DNA of 64,000 bases from NCBI GenBank assembly GCA_963705915.1, contig OY970126.1, positions 515,552 to 579,551 on the forward strand, read 5' to 3'. The notes under the pieces are model-generated. The model saw nothing but the letters and a program-made list of their open reading frames with translations, was not told where the DNA came from and searched no databases. Numbering within the stretch: the stretch's first letter is position 1; each line of letters begins with the position of its first letter. This document shows, one piece after another, positions 12,118 through 27,566 of the stretch. This DNA comes from an uncultured bacterium. Lineage in GTDB: Bacteria; Patescibacteriota; Minisyncoccia; UBA6257; 2-01-FULL-56-20. A program made the translations under genes and the position numbers.

Positions 12118-15100
12118 CTATTTCTCAGATGCCCCACCGCTCGGTGCCGCCGCAGCAGCCACTTCCTCCTCTTCTATATCTTCTTCGTGAAGGATGTGAA
12201 CGCCTTCAATATCCTGTTTACCGGCCGGGATCAGGCGGCCGATGATGACGTTTTCCTTCAAGCCGCGGAGTTTGTCCACCTTGGCTTCGATGGCTGCTTT
12301 CACGAGGACACGAGATGTGTCTTGGAATGAAGCCGCGGAAAGGAATGATTCAGCAGAAAGTGCAATGCGGGTGATGCCAAGCAATACCTCTTCTGATTTG
12401 GCGAGTTTCGCGCCCTGTTTCTTGAGCTCCTTATTCACTTCGAGGAACTTGGACTTCTCAACAATCTCGCCCATCACGAAGTCAGGTGCATCGCCGCCTT
12501 CCGTAATCTTCACGCGCGAGAACATCTGCTTCACGATCATTTCGATATGCTTGTTGTTGATCGAAGCGCCTTCGGAGAGATAGATTTTCTGGACTTCATT
12601 CACAATGTAGCGAGCGACTTCACGCATGCCCTTGTGTTCATACAACTCGTGGATGTCGAGGTTGCCTTCGGTGAGGAGGTCGCCCTTCTGAACCTTGTCG
12701 CCCTGATGGGCAAAGAACACCGTGCCGCGCGGGACGCTCACTTCCTGAGCTTTGGCCTTCTTGTTTTCCGCGATAAAGCGGATCGTCTTCAAATTGCCCT
12801 TTTCTTCGATCTTATCCACCGTCCCGTCGAATGGTGCGAGGATAGCGCGGCCCTTCGGTGAACGGGTTTCGAAAATTTCTTCGACCCGCGGAAGGCCGTG
12901 CGTGATGTCGGCACCGGCGACACCGCCCGAGTGGAAGGTGCGCATGGTGAGTTGAGTGCCCGGTTCGCCGATGGACTGTGCGGCGAGAACGCCGACGGCC
13001 GTGCCAAAGGCAACCGGTTTGCTCACGCCGAGATCAAAGCCATAACAACGTGCGCAAATGCCATAAAGCGTTTTGCACGTGATGGGTGACCGCACGATGA
13101 CTTCATCAATCTTGGTTGCTTCGATCGCTTCGGCCATCTCCTTGGTGATGGTTTCATTCGCACGGACAAGAATCTTGTTGCCGACTTTGATGTCGTGAAG
13201 CGCGGTGCGGGAATAGAGTTTCGATGAAAAACTCTGATTGAATTCTTTGCCGTCGCTGCGGAGGATGTCGATGCCTTCCTTGGTGCGGCAATCTTCCTCG
13301 CGGATCGTGAGATCCTGCGACACGTCAACCAAACGGCGCGTGAGATAACCAGCCTGCGCGGTCTTCAAAGCGGTGTCGGTCGTGCCTTTGCGGGCGCCGT
13401 GCGTCGAGATGAAGTATTCGAGAACCGACAAACCCTCCTTTAGGGACGACTTCACGGGAAGTTCGATCGTCTCGCCTTTCGGGTTTTGCACGAGTCCTTT
13501 CATACCCATCATCTGGATCGGCTGCGACCATGAACCGCGGGAACCGGAATCAACGATCTGGTAAATAGAATTGTCGATCGGCAAAATGCCGGAGACAATC
13601 TTCGCGAGCTCATTCTTGGTGCGCTCCCAAACGCTGATGACGCGGCTGCGGCGTTCGGCTGCGGTGAGTAAGCCTTCCGCAAATTGTTCGTGGATGAGAT
13701 TCACTTCGGCGTCGGCCTTCTTCATCACTTCCACTTTTTCCGGCGGGATCACGAGATCTGCCATCGCCCAGGTGATACCGGAGGTCGTCGCCATGTCGAA
13801 ACCGAGGAACTTCACGCGGTCGATCACGTCGCGCGTGGCATCCATGCCGTGGTCATGGAAAATCTTACTGAGCAACTGGTTCAATTTCTTCTTTGTTATC
13901 ACGTCGTTCACGAACGGGATCGTATCGCCGAGGGCGCGATTGAAAACCAAGCGGCCGGCGGTCGTCTCTATACCCTTCACGATGATCGGTGTATGAAGCG
14001 TGATGGCGCCGAAATGATGCGCGAGGAGCGCCTCATCTAAGCCGGTCATATGCTTTACCGGACCCTGTCCTTCAATTCTGCGGGTGAGATAGTAGCAACC
14101 AAGGACAACGTCATTCCACGGACCCGGGATGAGATCACCGGTCGCAGGCTTGAGCAAGTTTTTGCCGGCGGACATGATTTCTTCCGCTTCTTTCTGTGCT
14201 GGTTCGGAGAGCGGCAAGTGAACGGCCATTTGGTCGCCGTCGAAGTCTGCGTTAAACGCTGCGCACACGAGCGGCGGCAATTTGATCGCCAAGCCTTCAA
14301 CGAGCTGCGGACGGAACGCCTGCACCGACAAGCGGTGCAACGTTGGAGCGCGGTTCAAAAGCACGCGCTTCCCCTGCATCACTTCTTCGAGAACGGCGAG
14401 CACTTCGGGCGTGTGTTCTTCCATGTAACGCGAGGCGCTGCGAATGTTATGGGCCAAGCCGCGCTTGATGATCTCGGAAACGACGAATGGGCGGAAAAGT
14501 TCCAAGGCCATGCGCTTCGGAATACCCATCTCGTCGAGCTTCAATTTTGGACCGACGACGATAACCGAACGGCCAGAGTAGTCCACACGCTTACCGAGCA
14601 AGTTCTGACGGAAGCGACCCTGTTTGCCTTTCAACATGTCGGCGAGCGAGCGAAGCGGACGGCGCTGAGCGCTAAGCTGCTGGGTGCCGAAACGGGCCGA
14701 GTTATCAATCAAGGCATCAACAGCTTCCTGCAGCATGCGCTTTTCGTTACGGACGATCACGTCCGGCGCTTTGATCTCGAGCAATTTCTTGAGGCGATTG
14801 TTGCGGTTGATCACGCGGCGATACAAATCGTTCAAGTCGGACGTGGCATAACGGCCGCCGTCGAGGGCCACCATCGGACGGAGATCCGGAGGCAGCACGG
14901 GGAGCGAGGTCATGATCATCCATTCCGGCCGAGAGCCATTGCGGATCATCGCTTTGAACATCTTGAGGCGACGAAGCAGCTTGCTCTGGGCGAGCGGATC
15001 TTTGGCGCCTTCGAGTTCGGTCTCAATCTTCTGGATTTCTTTCTTGAGATCCATCTTTTCGAGAATCGAACGGACGGCCTCTGCACCGGATGAAGCCTTG

Positions 15101-18100
15101 AAAATGTTGCCGAATTTGCGCGAGAGCGTGAAGTATTCGTTCTCTGAAAGAATCTGGCCGACATGCAAGTCTTCCAAATAATCCTTGGTGGTGTCGGCGG
15201 CTTCGAGAATCTCGCCTTTCACGGCTTTGTCTTTATTGCCGACGGTCTTTAATTTGCCCTTGAGTTCGCGATCCAACTCGGCGAGGGCTTCCTTGCGGTT
15301 GTCTTCTTTTATTTCCGTGATGATGTATGCCGAATAATAAATGACGCGCTCCAATTTCTGTGCCGACACATCGAGCGAGAGCGAAAGGCGCGACGGGATG
15401 CTCTTCAAAAACCAGATGTGGCTCGCGGGTGTCGCGAGGGCGATGTGGCCGATGCGTTCGCGGCGGACCGCTGCACGCGTCACTTCAACACCGCACTTGT
15501 CGCAGACAACGCCCTTATAGCGGATCCTGCGATATTTGCCGCAGTAGCATTCATAATCTTTCGTTGGGCCGAAAATGCGCTCGGAGAATAAGCCATCTTT
15601 TTCAGGCCGCTGCGTGCGGTAGTTGATCGTCTCGGGCTTCGTGACCTCGCCATGCGACCAGCGCGCAATGTCTTCCGGCGAGGCAACGGTGATACGCAAC
15701 GCCGAGAAGCTGTCTTTGCGATCGGTTTCTGATTCATAAAGCGGTTGGATGTTGAATCCGAGCGACTTCAATTCGTTCACCAACACATTGAACGAGGCCG
15801 GAACGTTCGGCTCTTTGATCTGTTCGCCGCGGATGATCGATTCGTATGCCGCAGCACGACCAATCACGTCATCGGATTTGATCGTGAGCATTTCCTGAAG
15901 CGTGTGTCGTGCGCCGTAGCCTTCGAGCGCCCAGACTTCCATCTCACCGAAGCGTTGGCCGCCGAACTGCGCTTTACCGCCAAGCGGCTGCTGAGTGATG
16001 AGCGAGTATGGACCGATCGAACGCATGTGCGCCTTGTCTTCCACAAGGTGGTTCAGCTTGAGCATATAGATCTGACCAACGGTCACGCGATTATCGAACG
16101 CAACGCCGGTGCGGCCGTCGAAGAGCTTCACTTTGCCGTCTTTCGGAAGGCCAGCTTTTTCGAGTTCCGTTTCGATTTCGGCTTGCGTGGCAGAATCGAG
16201 TCCCGGCGTGATGGCACGATAGCCGAGCTTCGAAGCAGCCCAACCAAGATGGGTTTCCAAAATTTGTCCGAGGTTCATACGGGAGATGACGCCGAGCGGA
16301 TTCAAAACGATGTCAACCGGCGTGCCGTCTTCGAGATACGGCATATCTTCCACGGCGCGCACTTGCGAGATGACCCCTTTGTTGCCGTGCCGTCCGGCGA
16401 GTTTGTCGCCCGCCTGCACTTTGCGGAGTTCTGCGATTTCAACCTGAATACGCCGGATGATGCCGGGTTCGAGTTTGTCGCCGCGTTCGCGATCGAACAC
16501 TTTTACGTTCACCACACGACCGATTTTACCGTGCGGAAGCGTGAGCGACGTATCTTTCACGTCGCGCGCTTTTTCACCGAAGATTGCGCGCAAAAGCCGC
16601 TCTTCTGAGGTGAGTTCCGATTCACCTTTCGGAGAAATTTTACCGACAAGAATGTCCCCCGCTTTCACTTCGGCGCCGATGCGGACGATGCCTTCTTCAT
16701 CAAGGTTCTTCAATTTATCTTCTGAAACGTTAGGGATGTCGTAGGTCGTCACTTCCGGACCAAGCTTCGTATCACGCACGTCGCAGGAATATTCATCAAT
16801 ATGGATAGAGGTGAAACGATCGTCGCGGACGACGCGCTCGGAAATGATGATGGCGTCCTCAAAGTTTGCACCTTCCCATGAGACGAAGCTCACCAGAAGA
16901 TTTTGGCCTAATGCGAGCACGCCGTTTTCAATGGAAGGTCCATCGGCGAGGATTTGCCCTTTCTTCACTTTGTCGCCGGACGTGACGAGCGGACGCTGGG
17001 AAATACAGGTGAACTGGTTTGAACGCTTGAATTTCTCAAGCGTGTAATTCTTGGTTGCTTTTGGATATCTCACTTTGAGATGGGCTCCATCAGCTTCGAG
17101 AATTTCGCCATTTTCTTCGGCGACGATCACGTAGCCGGAGTCGAGCGCCACTTTTTCCTCTTGACCCGTTGAAACATAAGGCGCATCAGGCTTTACGGAC
17201 ACGACTGCCTGGCGTTGCATGTTGGAACCCATGAGCGCCCGGTTCGCATCGTCGTGCTGCAAGAACGGAATGAGCGACGTGGCAACGGAAACGAATTCAT
17301 GCGGCGCGACGTCGATATAATCGACTTCGTCCGGCGTCACCGTTCCCGGCTCACCTTTAATACGCGCTTCGAGCAACGGGCCAACGAGTTTGTCGTTTTC
17401 ATCCCGCTTGCTGCCGGCATGGGTAATCTTGTATTTTTCTTCTTCCGAAGCATCCATCCAAACAACGTCTTTCGTAATGACACTGTTCGTCACCTTCATG
17501 TACGGCGCCTCAAGGAAACCGAAATCGTTGATGCGGGTGTAGCTTGCGAGGTAGTTGATGAGACCGATATTCGAACCTTCCGGCGTCTGAATTGGACAGA
17601 TGCGACCATAGTGCGAGCGGTGCACGTCGCGCACTTCGAAACTCGCGCGCTCACGGGTGAGACCGCCCGGACCGAGCGCGGAAATGCGGCGCTTATGCTC
17701 AAGCTCCGCGAGCGGGTTCACCTGGTCCATAAATTGCGAGAGCTGTGAGCTTGCGAAAAATTCTTTGATGACGGCTGCGATCGGGCGGAAATTCACGAGC
17801 TGTGCAGGTTGAAGATTGTCTTTGTCTTCGGTCGACATGCGGTCTTGAATGATACGACGCAAGCGAGCGAGACCGATACGCAAACGGCCCTGGAGTAATT
17901 CGCCGACCGCCTTTAAGCGGCGATTGCCCAGGTGGTCGATGTCGTCCGGTTCAGCATCCGGGTCGTTATTTAAAGCGATGATTTCACGGACAATCCCAAC
18001 GATATCATCGGCATCAAGGAGCTTATAGGTCTTTTTTTGATTGAAGTCCAAACGCTGATTCATCTTGTAGCGGCCCACCTCCGAAAGGTCGTAGCGGTCG

Positions 18101-18876
18101 GGGCGCTCAAACATCGCACTGATGAGATTCTTCGCTGTTTCTGCGTTCGCCGGATCGCCCGGGCGCAAACGGCGATAGATTTCAACATATGATTCCGCAG
18201 CGTCCTTTGCGACGTCTTTCTTGAGCGTTGCATCGATGTATTTAATGAGTCCCCCGTCAACATCCTTGAATGCCGCGTGGATTTTTTCGGTCGTGAGGCC
18301 AAAGATACGGAGCAAATCGGTGACGGGCACCTTGCGGTGACGGTCGATCTTCACGCCGATTTCACCGTTGATGTCAGTTTCAAATTCGAGCCATGCGCCG
18401 CGGTTTGGAATAATTTTTGCGCCGAAAAGCTGACGGCCGCGATACGGGGTCGCCGTAAAATACACGCCCGCCGAACGTACAAGCTGGGAAACGACAACGC
18501 GCTCAACGCCGTTCACGATGAATGTGCCGCGTCCCGTCATGATCGGGAAATCACCGAAATAGACTTCTTGCTTTTGCTCCTTCCCCGTCCGCTTATTCAC
18601 CAAGCGGAGCGTGCAGCGCAACGGCGCTTCGTACGTCGCTTCTTTGTAGCGTGCCGTCGCTTCGTCATATTTCGGCTCATCAAATCGATAGTCCGAAAAA
18701 TATAATTCAAACTCCTTCCCGGTATGATCCCGGATCGGCGAGATTTCTTCGAGGAGCTCGTTTAATCCTTTTTTAAGAAACCATTCGTAGGATTTGAGTT
18801 GAGCTTCGTTCAAATTGAACGGAGCGATGAGCGACTTTGATTTACCGAACTGCTTCGTTGAGGTAAATTTTGCCAT
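12118..18876 (-). CDS. rpoBC: DNA-directed RNA polymerase beta-beta' fusion protein (rpoB-rpoC in one 2252-aa reading frame)
   Basis: The N-terminal ~1049 aa carries beta signatures, for example [18 protein letters not shown] and ...[12 protein letters not shown] at its C-terminus. A short linker TDRKDS joins it in frame to the beta' N-terminus [77 protein letters not shown]. Beta' motifs NADFDGD and the trigger-loop region follow. The junction is at about 15730. Confidence 0.9.
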
Positions 18877-22440: not shown

Positions 22441-22569
22441 CGTAAGTCAGCATTGGGATGGTTGGCGGGATTATTAGTATCACTTGGCTTAACGCATTGC
22501 TGCGCTTACACCTATGACCTATCAACGTCGTAGTCTTCGACGAAATCACGCACACCTAATCTTGGGGTG

Positions 22570-22602
<33 letters not shown>

Positions 22603-22691
22603 CTTCCATACATAGCTACTCGGCAATTCACCTGGTGGCAAAGCCGATAGACCAGAGGTATGTTCAGTCCAGTCCTCTCGTCGATTACTCA

Positions 22692-23463
22692 CATATTACT
22701 ATGTGCTCAGACTATATCTTCATCCTTCCGCAAAGCGGTGTCGGACGTCGGCATATTATAGCGATTCAAAAACCGCTATCCGGTCATTCGGTATAGAACC
22801 GAAGACACAAGTCGTTACGGGGTCAAACCAAAAATCGTTTTTAATTCTTCTTTGGATCTTTTCTTTCTTGTAGCATAATTTTCGGATTGAACAATCAATA
22901 TATTATCTATTAATTGTTCTTTGACTGGCGACAAGTCGCAGCCAGCAGACAAAAGTAGTCGAGCTGAACTTATAATAGCTTGTGCCTGTTTCTTTTTAAA
23001 TTTAAGAAATGGCAACAAACTTTCTAAAATGTTCATCACCCGTTTGTGTCCGTTGATTCGCAGCTCCGTCATCCCATCATTTCTCCGATAAATGTATCCT
23101 ATGCCCAAGACTGTCCTGATCCAATGGAGCGGTTGGTCATGCCGGGAATCCTGATAAAAACAGATGGTCAGCATGACCCTTCGTGTTTTTAATCGAGATT
23201 CTGAACGCCGCTTGAGTTGTATCATCAAGCTACCATCTCCGTCCAAGAATCCAGCGATATACGCTAGATCGATTTGAGATTGACTTCCCACGGTATTGCC
23301 CTGTTCTTGTACCATATCTCAATGGTAAGGAATGAGGACCGTAATTCAAGCTGCCTTTAATAAATTTTTAATAAAAATATTAAGGACGCCGAAGTAAGAA
23401 TAGGGTTTCACCGTTATTAGCCGAGTTGGCAATCTGGATTACTCCAGAAAGTAGCAATTTCTT
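22692..23463 (-). mobile_element. Intron (presumed group I) in 23S rRNA at the sarcin-ricin loop region, carrying a LAGLIDADG homing endonuclease ORF
   Basis: Exon sequences GGTCTTAGT | ACGAGAGGACTGG rejoin to the universally conserved AGUACGAGAGGACC. The 772-nt insert ends in G and begins after U. About 270 nt of non-ORF sequence remains for a ribozyme core. Confidence 0.6.
22815..23315 (-). CDS. LAGLIDADG-family homing endonuclease (intron-encoded)
   Basis: LAYIAGFLDGDGSLMIQLK motif. 166 aa, single-motif type. Lies entirely within the 23S insertion. Confidence 0.85.
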   Translation of the reverse strand: MVQEQGNTVGSQSQIDLAYIAGFLDGDGSLMIQLKRRSESRLKTRRVMLTICFYQDSRHDQPLHWIRTVLGIGYIYRRNDGMTELRINGHKRVMNILESLLPFLKFKKKQAQAIISSARLLLSAGCDLSPVKEQLIDNILIVQSENYATRKKRSKEELKTIFGLTP

Positions 23464-23503
23464 ACTAAGACCAACTCCCCTCAAGTGTTAAACGCCTGCA
23501 GCA

Positions 23504-23544
<41 letters not shown>

Positions 23545-24428
23545 ACGTGCCACTTTAATTGGCGAACAGCCAAACGCTTGGGAGCTTCTCCACCCCCGCG
23601 CTGTGGCGAGCCGACATCGAGGTGCCGAGCATTGTCGTCGCTAGGGACGCTCGGACAATACTAGCCTGTTATCCCCGGAGTAGCTTTTATCCGGTGTCTC
23701 CGGCCTTTCTATCAAGAATTTAATGAATCGTAAGAAACAATAAATATAGCCGTCGGGTCACTAACTTCTGCTTTCGCACCTGCTCGACTTGTAGGTCTCG
23801 CAGTCAAGCCAGCTTTTGCGTTTGCACGTCCTGCCCGATTTCCATCCGGGCTAAGCTGACCTTAATAAACTCCTCCGTTACTCTTTTGGAGGAAAACGCC
23901 CCATTTAAACTGCCTACCAAGCACTGTCTCAGTTGGGTTTCCTCTAGGGTCCCCAACCGGTTAGACGTTAAAGTTCTAAAAATGGCTGTTTCATTGTCGG
24001 ATCCACACAACCCGAGAGCTGTGCTTCAAATCCTCACCACTACGCTACGTAGTAGAACTCTAAAATCAATACCAAGCTGCAGTAAAGCTTCCGGGGTCTT
24101 TTCGTCCCGCTGCAGGTATCCCGCGTCTTCACGGGAATCGCATTTTCACCGAGCTTGCCTCTGAGACAGTTCTCCGGTCGTTACGCCTTTCGTGCGCTTC
24201 GGAACTTACCCGAAAAGGAATTGCGCTACCTTAGAACGATTATAGTTATCGCTGACATTGACGAGGGCTTGAGTCAGTGAGCCTCCGTATTGCTACGGCA
24301 CCCCCAACCTTGACCTTCTCGCATCGGTCAGGCGTCACCCCCTATACATCCTCTTGCGAGTTAGCAGGGAGCTGTGTTTTTGGTAAACAGTCGCCAGAGA
24401 GACTTTTGTTGCAGCCCAACACCACTTT

Positions 24429-24737
24429 GATTTCAAGATTAAAGAAAGCTGTTTTTGATCCTTTTATAAAGCTCTTGCTTAGCTCTACCATGACTTTTTA
24501 ATCGTTGTTCTCTGCGAAGAGCGTCCTCAAAACTTCGATACGCTTCAATGTAAACAAATTTCCATTCGCCTACACTTCGTTTAGTAGCAGTTTGAAGACC
24601 ACGATTATGCTCAGATAATCTACGTCGAAGATTTTTTGTATGTCCGATGTAGAACTCTTTTGTCACAGTATTTTGGATGAAGTAAACAGCAAACATTTGC
24701 TCATTTTAATCCTATGCGGATTAAAAATATCTTAAAA
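24429..24737 (-). mobile_element. Compact 309-nt insertion in a 23S variable helix carrying a GIY-YIG ORF (IVS-like or degenerate intron)
   Basis: Flanked by an about 15-bp complementary pair, gcccagcaccactttg and caaagtggtgttgggc. The non-ORF part is only about 50 nt, which is too short for a group I core. Confidence 0.5.
24439..24696 (-). CDS. GIY-YIG nuclease-domain protein (85 aa)
   Basis: VYFIQNTVTKEFYIGHTKNLRRRLSEHN matches the GIY-YIG core (GIY...YIG, R, E, N). Confidence 0.7.
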   Translation of the reverse strand: MFAVYFIQNTVTKEFYIGHTKNLRRRLSEHNRGLQTATKRSVGEWKFVYIEAYRSFEDALRREQRLKSHGRAKQELYKRIKNSFL

Positions 24738-25987
24738 GCAAAGTGGTGCTGGGCAGGCCTTATCGCTAACTTACGGCCGCTTTTTTGCCTAGTTCCTTAG
24801 AGGCAAATCACTCGTTCCCCTTGGGCTACTCGCCCTATCCACCAGTGTCGGTTTACGGTACGGTTCCCATGTTTCATAACAAACACGCTTTTCTCGAAGG
24901 GCTCTTCACGATCATTAGCCAGGTAAATTCCTGACCTTCCGCCTCCGGCCGCTTGAACTTGCCGGTAGCGATATCAAACCAATAAGACACGATCGCTTAT
25001 TTCCCTTGCACGTGCAGGATAAAAACATAGGAGGGCTGGAATATTAACCAGCATTCCATCGACTGCCCCTTTCGGGATTGCCTTAGGACCGCCTAACCCG
25101 TGGTTGATTGCCAGTGCCACGGAAACCTTAGATTTTCGGGGTTCCAATTTCTCATTGGGATTGTGGTTACTCGTTCCGACATTTTCTCTTCCGGACGCTC
25201 CAGTCGCCCTCGCGGGTCGACCTTCACTGCAACCGGAATGCTCTCCTACCAGACGTGTCTCCCGAAGGAAACACGAATTCGTATCTTCGGTGCCGTGCTT
25301 GAGCCCCGATACATTTTCGGCGCCACCACCCGTCGAATAGTGAGTTGTTACACACTCTTTAAAGGATGGCTACCTCTAAGCCAACCTCCTATCTGTCTAT
25401 GGGTGATAACTACCTTTAACACTGAGCACGGACTTGGGGACCTTAGATGACGATCTGGGCTCTTCCCCTCGCGACCATGGAGCTTAGCCCCCACAGTCTG
25501 ACTAGTGAGTTTTTGACTCTCGGTATTCGGAGTTTGATTGATCTGTCGGCCTTTCGGCCTTTACAGATCATCCAGTGCTCTACCCCCAAGAGGAACACTC
25601 ACCGCTAGTCCTAAAACTATTTCGGAGAGAACCAGCTATTACGTAATTCGATTAGCTTTTCACTCCTTACCTCAGCTCATCCGAAGATTTTGAACAATCA
25701 ACCGGTTCGGGCCTCCCTCTCGATTTCTCGAGAGTTCACCCTGGCCAAGGTAAGCTCATCACGCTTCGGGTCTAGACTGTGCCGCCTATAGTTCGCCCTA
25801 TTAAGACTCGCTTTCGCTGCGCCTTCGCGCTATTCGCGCTTAGACAAGCGACACAATATAAGTCGTCGGATCATTCTTCAATAGGCACATTGTCGTTCTC
25901 GTCCGCGGATTGCTCCGCAGCCGTTCGAACTTCAATTCCTTGTAGACAAATGGTTTCAGGTTCTATTTCAACGGCCTCACCGGCCTG

Positions 25988-26024
<37 letters not shown>

Positions 26025-26998
26025 ATCTAGAAAAGTATTTAGCCTTACCAGATAGTACTGGCAAATTCCTTCGAAACTGTTTTACTTCGAAGTACTCAAG
26101 TAGGTAAACTAAGGAGACCAAAAGTTTTCGTCTACGGGGCTATCACCCGCTATGGCACTGGCTTTCCAGCCAGCTTCGACTAACTCATGATTTTTTGACT
26201 CCTCCACCAACCTCATAAATAACACAAGGTACATTGCTATACCCTATGTTATTTAGGAGGAGAGCGTTCATCACTTATAACTCCAAGGTTTGACCTTGCG
26301 ATCAGAACCTTAGTCTGGGCTCTTCCCTTTTCTCTCGCCGATACTCAGGGAATAAACTGTTTGTTCTTTGTTCCTCCGGCTACTGAAATGTTTTACTTCG
26401 CCGGGTACGCTCTTGGATTGCTCCAAGCCATTGAGGTTTACTCAACGAGGTTCCCCCATTCGGAAATTCCCGGATCACAGGTTGCTACGCACCTCCCCGA
26501 GACATATCGCTGCTACGCCGCGTCCTTCATCGCCTTTTCTAGTCTAGGCATCCACCATTCGCCCTTAATGCCAACCATCCCAATGCTGACTTAAATTTAT
26601 TTGCTCTGCCTGCCAAGAGAAATTGCGCGCGTGAAAAGTGCAAAACATCAAGCGCGTGCCTGGTCTCTCTATAATATAGAGCGGCTCCAGACATAAGATG
26701 GCGCAGAGCTACATATAATGACTCCGACTCTACAATTCGGAGTTCGTTCATGGACTATCGAACGAATTATGGAAAATTGCGTTCGACAGGATACCTAAGA
26801 AAAAAATCAGCCGCACATCGCGGCCGCTCTGCCATCATAAAATGGCGGGTTCAGCCGCTTGCTTTGAGAAGATTTTTATTCGTAAGCATCTGTCTTAGGG
26901 ATAAGTATACTCAGCTTGAAAAGGGTGTCAAGCATGATGGAAACAGATCAAAAGTTTCAAAAATAAAACCGCCTGGCGACATTGCTTGTAAAGCTTCG

Positions 26999-27495: not shown

Positions 27496-27566
27496 CGGGC
27501 CGTAGTATACCGGTAGTACGTGCGCTTCGGGTGCGTAAAGACTGGGTTCGATTCCCAGCGGCCCGA
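27496..27566 (+). tRNA. tRNA-Pro (anticodon CGG), CCA not encoded
   Basis: Manual fold: acceptor CGGGCCG/CGGCCCG, D-stem GTAT/GTAC, anticodon stem TGCGC/GCGTA with loop TTCGGGT (CGG, G37), T-arm CTGGG-TTCGATT-CCCAG, discriminator A. Confidence 0.65.

Follow-up and report, generated by a model that had tools for sequence, protein, structure and literature searches.

A probable mobile IA-like group I intron between U2656 and A2657 divides the sarcin-ricin loop of a Patescibacteria 23S rRNA gene

How can a 23S ribosomal RNA (rRNA) gene serve its cell when the sarcin-ricin loop (SRL) lies interrupted in the DNA? The question is raised by a stretch of 64,000 nucleotides from contig OY970126.1 (assembly GCA_963705915.1), hereafter the window, in which a 23S gene on the minus strand carries a 782-nucleotide insert inside this loop. 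The SRL is needed by the ribosome for elongation-factor function and GTPase activation, and splicing of the insert would therefore have to restore it. A preliminary description, made from the letters alone, had taken the insert for a 23S intron with an endonuclease gene. Exon mapping with blastn and a match to the Rfam family Intron_gpI (E = 1.2e-7) bear out an intron in the 23S gene. The element is very probably a mobile IA-like group I intron between U2656 and A2657 (E. coli numbering) of the 23S gene of a member of the Patescibacteria, also known as the Candidate Phyla Radiation (CPR).

The junction was located by aligning both exons to E. coli rrlH. In the blastn alignments, E. coli 1770-2660 corresponds to window 24394-23460 and E. 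coli 2657-2884 to window 22681-22473, which places E. coli 2657 on the first base of the 3' exon, window 22681. The upstream exon terminates in ...GGUCUUAGU at 23464. The rejoined exons read ...CUUAGU|ACGAGAGGACUGG, the sequence of the SRL; E. coli 2640-2680 is GGGGGGCUGCUCCUAGUACGAGAGGACCGGAGUGG, and the flanks of the intron-less junction in the window are GGGGAGTTGGTCTTAGT|ACGAGAGGACTGGACTGAAC. By this mapping and by the comparison of the exon sequence with E. coli 2640-2680, the gene is split at U2656|A2657, inside the SRL (domain VI, helix 95). The split within the SRL at AGU|ACGAGAGG, as first described, is thus confirmed by blastn to rrlH, and a junction at 2593, which had been raised as an alternative, is not the case by the same alignment. 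The first estimate of about E. coli 2655 had the SRL region right but not the exact number, 2656/2657. Similarly, the upper boundary given for the insert (23463) was exact, whereas the lower one (22692) was wrong by 10 nucleotides; the true end is 22682, and the insert measures 782 rather than 772 nucleotides. The exons are well conserved and the helix 95 pairing is kept. The Rfam model of the bacterial large subunit (LSU) rRNA matches 26578 to 23320 and ends wrongly, inside the intron, missing the true last ~250 nucleotides of the gene at 22681-22450. Since this model forces the 3' end into the intron, any annotation that relies on it would misplace the end of the 23S gene.

The insert is preceded by a U and its last base is G, both of which had been put forward as hallmarks of a group I intron, and homologues retrieved from other genomes (see below) uphold both. 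At the 5' splice site, UAGU|AA pairs with UUGCUA, and the final exon U makes a U·G wobble that is invariant in 28/28 and in 67/67 homologues. A compensatory change is present in locus L007, where the exon reads CAGU and the guide sequence GCUG. The terminal G occurs in all 68 extracted homologous introns. For a comparative structure, the interior of the open reading frame (ORF) was removed, and 67 homologous introns were aligned and folded with RNAalifold. P1 including the exon, P2, a long-range P3, P4, P5 with an extended arm, P6 closing the ORF, P8, P9.0, and P9 were all found. The 56 core pairs are canonical in 96.7% of cells. This fraction drops to 35-39% when the 3' partner is slid by 1-2 columns; column shuffles give 85%, and the observed value was reached by 0/300 of them. 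Both-side compensatory changes were seen at 32 of the 56 pairs. Additionally, RNAalifold runs on separate tool-made alignments of the two ends returned the same P1, P2, P8, P9.0, and P9, with 7/12 and 11/16 compensated pairs. A group I core was detected, namely a P3-P9 core with the P3/P7 pseudoknot and the P4-P6 domain, and by this structure the insert belongs to the group I introns.

These features bear on a different account of the insert, in which it would be an intervening sequence (IVS) excised by RNase III-type processing without ligation, leaving a fragmented 23S rRNA as with the classical bacterial IVS. Bacterial 23S genes frequently contain such sequences, which are also common in CPR (PMC11270868), and a second insert in the same gene, with a GIY-YIG ORF, resembles a helix extension. 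However, the covariation-supported group I core, the invariant U·G, the invariant terminal G, and P9.0 all argue against it. Moreover, the insert stands inside a 12-nucleotide universally conserved loop, where a break would destroy the SRL, and it lacks a long RNase III-type flanking stem. An IVS is thus very improbable, and a group I intron is preferred.

The individual helices differ in how far they vary (coordinates in Table 1). P2 is compensated on both sides in 6/6 pairs of the 5'-end alignment and in 7/7 of the 67-sequence set. Compensatory changes are found at 4/5 pairs of P3, whose long-range pairing was recovered by RNAalifold, and P5 covaries at 5/6 pairs. P8 covaries at 4/5 pairs in the 67 introns and at 3/4 in the 3'-end alignment, while 2-3 pairs of P9.0 and 5/6 of P9 covary. 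P4 is 99.8% canonical, with one compensatory change. The P6 motifs AAYAYCGWGGGAAGWC (5' strand) and TGACCCCSTAACGACT (3' strand) are each found in 64/68 introns, and J8/7 together with the P7 3' strand is nearly invariant across homologues. The pairing GACU/AGUC of P7 is invariant in 67/67, which fits a catalytic core; because it never varies, covariation neither supports nor contradicts P7. Two hairpins, P7.1 and P7.2, lie between the P7 5' strand and P3', a layout shared by the majority of 16 homologues compared, the copy in the window included. Hairpins at this place are a published hallmark of subgroup IA (PMC3428280; PMC2248736). The intron is therefore called IA-like, an assignment made on architecture only.

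Given this structure, the intron would be transcribed within the pre-23S rRNA and the RNA would fold into the P1-P9 core. Self-splicing of the pre-rRNA would presumably follow the two-step guanosine-initiated pathway. An external guanosine would attack after the U of the conserved P1 U·G, and the freed 5' exon would then attack after the terminal G, positioned by P9.0 and P7. Ligation of ...UAGU to ACGAGAGG would recreate the SRL.

Table 1. Features of the 23S rRNA gene and of the predicted intron, in window coordinates
Feature	Position	Strand	Description	Evidence
Interrupted 23S rRNA gene	22450..26578	-	3' end approximate	Rfam LSU_rRNA_bacteria 2052.8 bits; blastn to E. coli rrlH
5S rRNA	22299-22182	-		Rfam
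Predicted group I intron	22682..23463	-	782 nucleotides; preceded by U; ends in omega-G at 22682	
5' exon end, P1 5' strand	23464..23467	-	last four exon bases UAGU (E. coli 2653-2656)	
P1 3' strand	23452..23457	-	internal guide sequence UUGCUA	
P2 hairpin	23433..23448	-	UCUGGA-GUAA-UCCAGA	
P3 5' strand	23420..23424	-	UCGGC; partner 22748-22752	
P4 5' strand	23409..23414	-	ACGGUG; partner 23290-23295	
P5	23299..23405	-	CCCUAUUCUU / AAGAACAGGG; extended P5a/b arm between strands	
LAGLIDADG homing-endonuclease ORF (predicted)	22815..23315	-	166 amino acids; ATG 23315; UAA 22817-22815; fills P6 loop	
P6 5' strand	23280..23289	-	GGGAAGUCAA; within ORF (codons V-G-S-Q)	
P6 3' strand	22819..22826	-	UUGACCCC; final ORF codons (..L-T-P)	
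P7 5' strand	22810..22813	-	GACU; partner AGUC at 22710-22713	
P7.1 and P7.2	22758..22803	-	hairpins 22787-22803 (P7.1) and 22758-22779 (P7.2), between P7 and P3'	
P3 3' strand	22748..22752	-	GCCGA	
P8 hairpin	22722..22746	-	GUCC...GGAU	
J8/7 and P7 3' strand	22710..22721	-	GAAGAUAUAGUC; conserved S element of group I introns	
P9.0, P9, and terminal G	22682..22708	-	P9.0 GAG / AUC just 5' of terminal G; P9 hairpin CACAUA-GUAA-UAUGUG; terminal G 22682	
3' exon start	22669..22681	-	ACGAGAGGACUGG (E. coli 2657-2669); with GAGA tetraloop of the SRL	

The ORF of the intron matches Pfam LAGLIDADG_1 (PF00961) with E = 1.4e-10 and 42.4 bits, above the cutoff of 23.1, and holds a single LAGLIDADG motif, LAYIAGFLDGDGS, as the preliminary description had read it. 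Among characterised enzymes, whose comparison had been suggested there, the nearest PDB sequences are I-CreI variants, I-MsoI, and I-CvuI (1e-11 to 1e-15); their introns sit at 2593. An AlphaFold model of the 166-residue protein, made with 30 homologues, has a mean predicted local distance difference test (pLDDT) of 87.8. In Foldseek, this model compares with I-CvuI, I-CreI, and I-MsoI at TM-scores of 0.75-0.83 and 26-32% identity, and its order of helices and strands matches the alpha-beta-beta-alpha-beta-beta-alpha core fold. Furthermore, D27, Q55, and K107 are invariant among 30 diverse homologues and align with D20, Q47, and K98 of I-CreI. These three are the catalytic residues of I-CreI in its own numbering, which agrees with the titles of PDB entries for D20N and Q47E. 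The ORF product is thus a predicted I-CreI-type LAGLIDADG enzyme of the homodimeric class.

The ORF had been called peripheral. It does fill the P6 loop, yet P5', P4', and P6 sequence takes up its first ~12 codons and P6' sequence its last ones. Codons 3-12 contribute to P5 and P4 (3' strands) and then to P6 (5' strand); at the other end, the P6 3' strand coincides with the final codons (..L-T-P), and the stop codon stands 1 nucleotide short of P7. Both ends are dual-coded with ribozyme helices (window 23280-23315 and 22815-22826). Residues 1-8 have a pLDDT below 50 and are predicted to be disordered. The peptide ends NTVGS and GLTP are near-invariant in an otherwise variable family, and this conservation would most simply reflect an RNA constraint, as the ORF ends overlap core helices.

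The endonuclease belongs to a wide family. Relatives in the database number 2,401 at E <= 0.001. A pattern search with one genome per species found more than 509 loci, of which the best 80 were fetched; all of these 80 are CPR metagenome-assembled genomes. By an automatic rule demanding an insert between ...AGU and ACGAGAGGAC, 68/80 loci carry the insert at the same junction. The 12 missed loci were inspected individually, which revealed 3' exon variants (ACGAGAGGAU) in some, a contig edge in some, an interrupted ORF in L014, a rearranged 5' part in L037, and an extra upstream intron in L047 and in L066; each of the 12 carries the element at this junction. After this inspection, the best 80 of more than 509 were all at or beside the same junction. 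One locus, L007 (2218-3002), is labelled 'uncultured Gammaproteobacteria' and has the same intron, with exon UUCAGU instead of CUAGU; this label may result from faulty binning or classification, or the locus may be a case outside CPR. As to the host of the window, the closest named relatives of its GatA (68-81% identity) belong to Candidatus Paceibacterota, the Patescibacteria group, and Minisyncoccia, and by this measure the host is a CPR/Patescibacteria bacterium.

Two loci were considered as possible relatives at other sites and rejected, the ORF that matches being in each case that of a second intron, at 2657. L047 (about 1-1750) has introns after U2593, the I-CreI site, and at 2656/2657, and L066 (about 1-1686) has introns near E. 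coli ~2537 and at 2656/2657. The enzymes of the upstream introns are 45% (L047, over 99 amino acids) and 33% (L066) identical to the protein of the window.

An assembly artefact and a dead copy of the rRNA gene are further readings of the split gene. The genome behind the window is of the metagenome type, and an odd fusion does occur among the relatives. In L037 (positions 2400-2560 of that locus) the 23S gene near E. coli ~2587 is joined to the J3/4-P4 region in the interior of the intron, with P1-P3 and ~70 nucleotides of exon missing, through either misassembly or deletion. However, elements with identical boundaries recur in dozens of independent assemblies, the contig of the window is 827 kb long, the exons with their helix 95 pairing are conserved as noted, and both ORF and core are intact. 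An artefact or dead copy is therefore extremely improbable, and the locus is treated as a genuine intron-bearing gene.

The DNA around the junction indicates what the enzyme would recognise. From -6 to +13 (~19 bp), the CPR consensus and E. coli are identical, so the target is near-universal in bacteria. By analogy with characterised relatives, the protein would dimerise and cleave intron-less alleles at the U2656|A2657 site, and repair from an intron-containing copy would spread the intron. Protein identity is 55-87% across distant CPR lineages, the site being the same throughout, which fits continued selection for site-specific cleavage. Two-fold symmetry was sought about every possible centre, both in the sequence of the window and in the consensus of the 68 loci; at the best centre 4-5/11 positions were symmetric, against ~2.75 expected by chance. 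As this barely exceeds chance, no cleavage centre is claimed. For a homodimeric enzyme, so weakly symmetric a target is the chief oddity.

This oddity also speaks for a rival view, that the ribozyme works while the ORF no longer encodes a homing endonuclease, being a maturase or an inactive remnant in an intron inherited only vertically. LAGLIDADG proteins can be maturases (PMC11270868), and decay does occur in the family, as in L014, where the endonuclease ORF is interrupted and cut to 48 codons. Additionally, the ORF ends are constrained by RNA structure rather than by the protein, and residues 1-8 are of low pLDDT. On the other side, the ORF of the window is intact, the three putative catalytic residues do not vary among the diverse homologues, and the identity kept across distant lineages always accompanies the same site. 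Same-site clades moreover show horizontal transfer (PMC11270868), contrary to purely vertical inheritance. The rival view is thus unlikely, and a homing endonuclease remains the preferred reading of the ORF.

The closest published counterpart comes from a survey of 348 CPR 23S genes by Tsurumaki et al. 2024 in J Bacteriol (PMC11270868). In that survey, LAGLIDADG_1 predominates at 1917, 1931, 1952, 2593, 2604, and 2657, that is, 23IS6-8 and 23IS12-14, and position 2657 (23IS14) is a frequent site of LAGLIDADG_1 introns in CPR 23S genes (PMC11270868). Intron sites are described as clustering around the peptidyl transferase centre, and horizontal transfer within same-site clades is reported (PMC11270868). 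Insertions are defined there relative to E. coli and need not equal the spliced region (PMC11270868). The element in the window shares with 23IS14 the CPR host, the gene, the position, group I likeness by Rfam, and a single-domain LAGLIDADG_1 protein, and it is a member of this published class. It had first been regarded as lying at a site not commonly reported. The site is indeed absent from classical lists, but it is frequent in CPR as 23IS14. Likewise, a homing endonuclease targeting the SRL is the probable reading of the ORF, but the hoped-for novelty is largely gone because Tsurumaki et al. 2024 reported position 2657. For 23IS14, PMC11270868 contains no mention of the SRL, exact splice sites, subgroup, covariation-based structure, or enzyme assay. 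A literature search for an SRL intron (L2656, L2657, sarcin with group I) yielded nothing relevant beyond that paper. The exact splice sites, the SRL placement, the covariation-backed IA-like structure, and the overlap of ORF and core are new here.

Other known systems share parts of this arrangement. I-CreI, I-MsoI, and I-CvuI, from green-algal chloroplast 23S position 2593, are likewise single-motif enzymes of ~160 amino acids encoded in LSU group I introns, and their fold and catalytic residues are as in the protein of the window. They differ in target, which is 2593 (domain V) for them and 2656/2657 (domain VI) here, and in setting (organelles against CPR); furthermore, the window protein is only 26-32% identical to them and its target is much less symmetric. 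I-ShaI and I-KazI also derive from CPR 23S group I introns and have a single LAGLIDADG_1 domain. However, they belong to 23IS7, in the 1917-1952 cluster, with another target, and I-ShaI is most like I-CeuI, not I-CreI. I-ShaI cuts its own insertion site and dimerises (PMC11270868), and may serve as the best experimental precedent for the action of the window enzyme. Phage and Bacillus IA introns in nrd and DNA-polymerase genes share P7.1/P7.2, the U·G, and the terminal G, as well as an ORF in the P6 region that runs into core helices (PMC3428280, PMC2248736). They differ in their protein-coding host genes, in their HNH or GIY-YIG enzymes, and in P10, which was not found in the window intron. 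Classical group I introns of bacterial 23S genes are known from Coxiella, Thermotoga, Simkania, and cyanobacteria (PMC11270868, refs 27-30). These are also group I, often with LAGLIDADG, and occupy conserved parts of the 23S gene as here, at other positions. Those positions are chiefly 1917 and 1931.

Several points weigh against a mobile IA-like group I intron. The Rfam match (22921 to 22689) scores 39.4 bits at the E-value given above and does not reach the RF00028 gathering cutoff of 50. The score stays low because the alignment is interrupted by the long ORF and the additional hairpins; a sensible fit is confined to the 3' core, and the convincing part is limited to J8/7-P7-P9, that is, UGAAGAUAUAGUC and the terminal hairpin. 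The 5' half of the Rfam alignment was rejected as spurious, its helix falling inside the ORF, and this unsupported helix was therefore replaced by the comparative structure. The sequences of the covariation set are mutually related, which inflates the shuffle statistics, and P7 and most of P4 and P6 are without variation and give no covariation information. P10, in which the P1 loop would pair with the 3' exon, was not found in convincing form: the window and most homologues have no complement to ACGAG. On the protein side, the target is less symmetric than expected of an enzyme that, like I-CreI, recognises its site symmetrically, and the sole CPR enzyme assayed, I-ShaI, comes from a different site.

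The locus indicates that the most conserved functional loop of LSU rRNA can lie split in the gene, to be rebuilt by RNA splicing. The endonuclease family is large: its database relatives exceed 2,400, and it occurs in over 500 species-level genomes. Its presumed target is common to nearly all bacteria and could interest meganuclease engineers, and the question arises why the element stays within CPR. As the SRL would be present only after splicing, the intron could gate maturation of the 50S subunit. A role in Patescibacteria as an obligatory checkpoint on 50S maturation, or as a throttle of it, making the intron not merely selfish, seems quite unlikely; if true, it would explain why the intron is widely retained in this phylum and not elsewhere, despite the identical ~19-bp target in E. 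coli. In a milder version, the family would presumably be a predicted I-CreI-type meganuclease of new specificity for a nearly universal bacterial sequence.

The same 23S gene carries a second insertion of ~300 nucleotides at 24405-24745 (minus strand), between about E. coli 1704 and 1770. It contains an 85-residue GIY-YIG ORF at 24439-24696 (Pfam E = 2.1e-18) and is flanked by the inverted repeat CACCACUUUG...CAAAGUGGUG. No group I match was found in this insertion, which looks like a helix extension or an IVS with a nuclease gene. Relative to E. coli, the gene is further expanded by an extra hairpin of ~65-110 nucleotides near E. coli 272-288 (window about 26170-26250, minus strand) and by an AT-rich enlargement of a hairpin loop by ~40 nucleotides upstream of GGAUAACAGGCU (about 23708-23749, minus strand). 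No 16S rRNA gene was found within the 64-kb window, and the 23S-5S pair is unlinked from 16S. The nearest feature upstream of the 23S gene is a tRNA at 27496-27566 on the opposite strand. The neighbouring genes are ordinary bacterial ones, including those for LigA, AlaS, CCA-adding enzyme, GatA, PilB, RodA, and MurD. Additionally, a very long ORF of 2,252 amino acids occupies window 12118-18876 on the minus strand.

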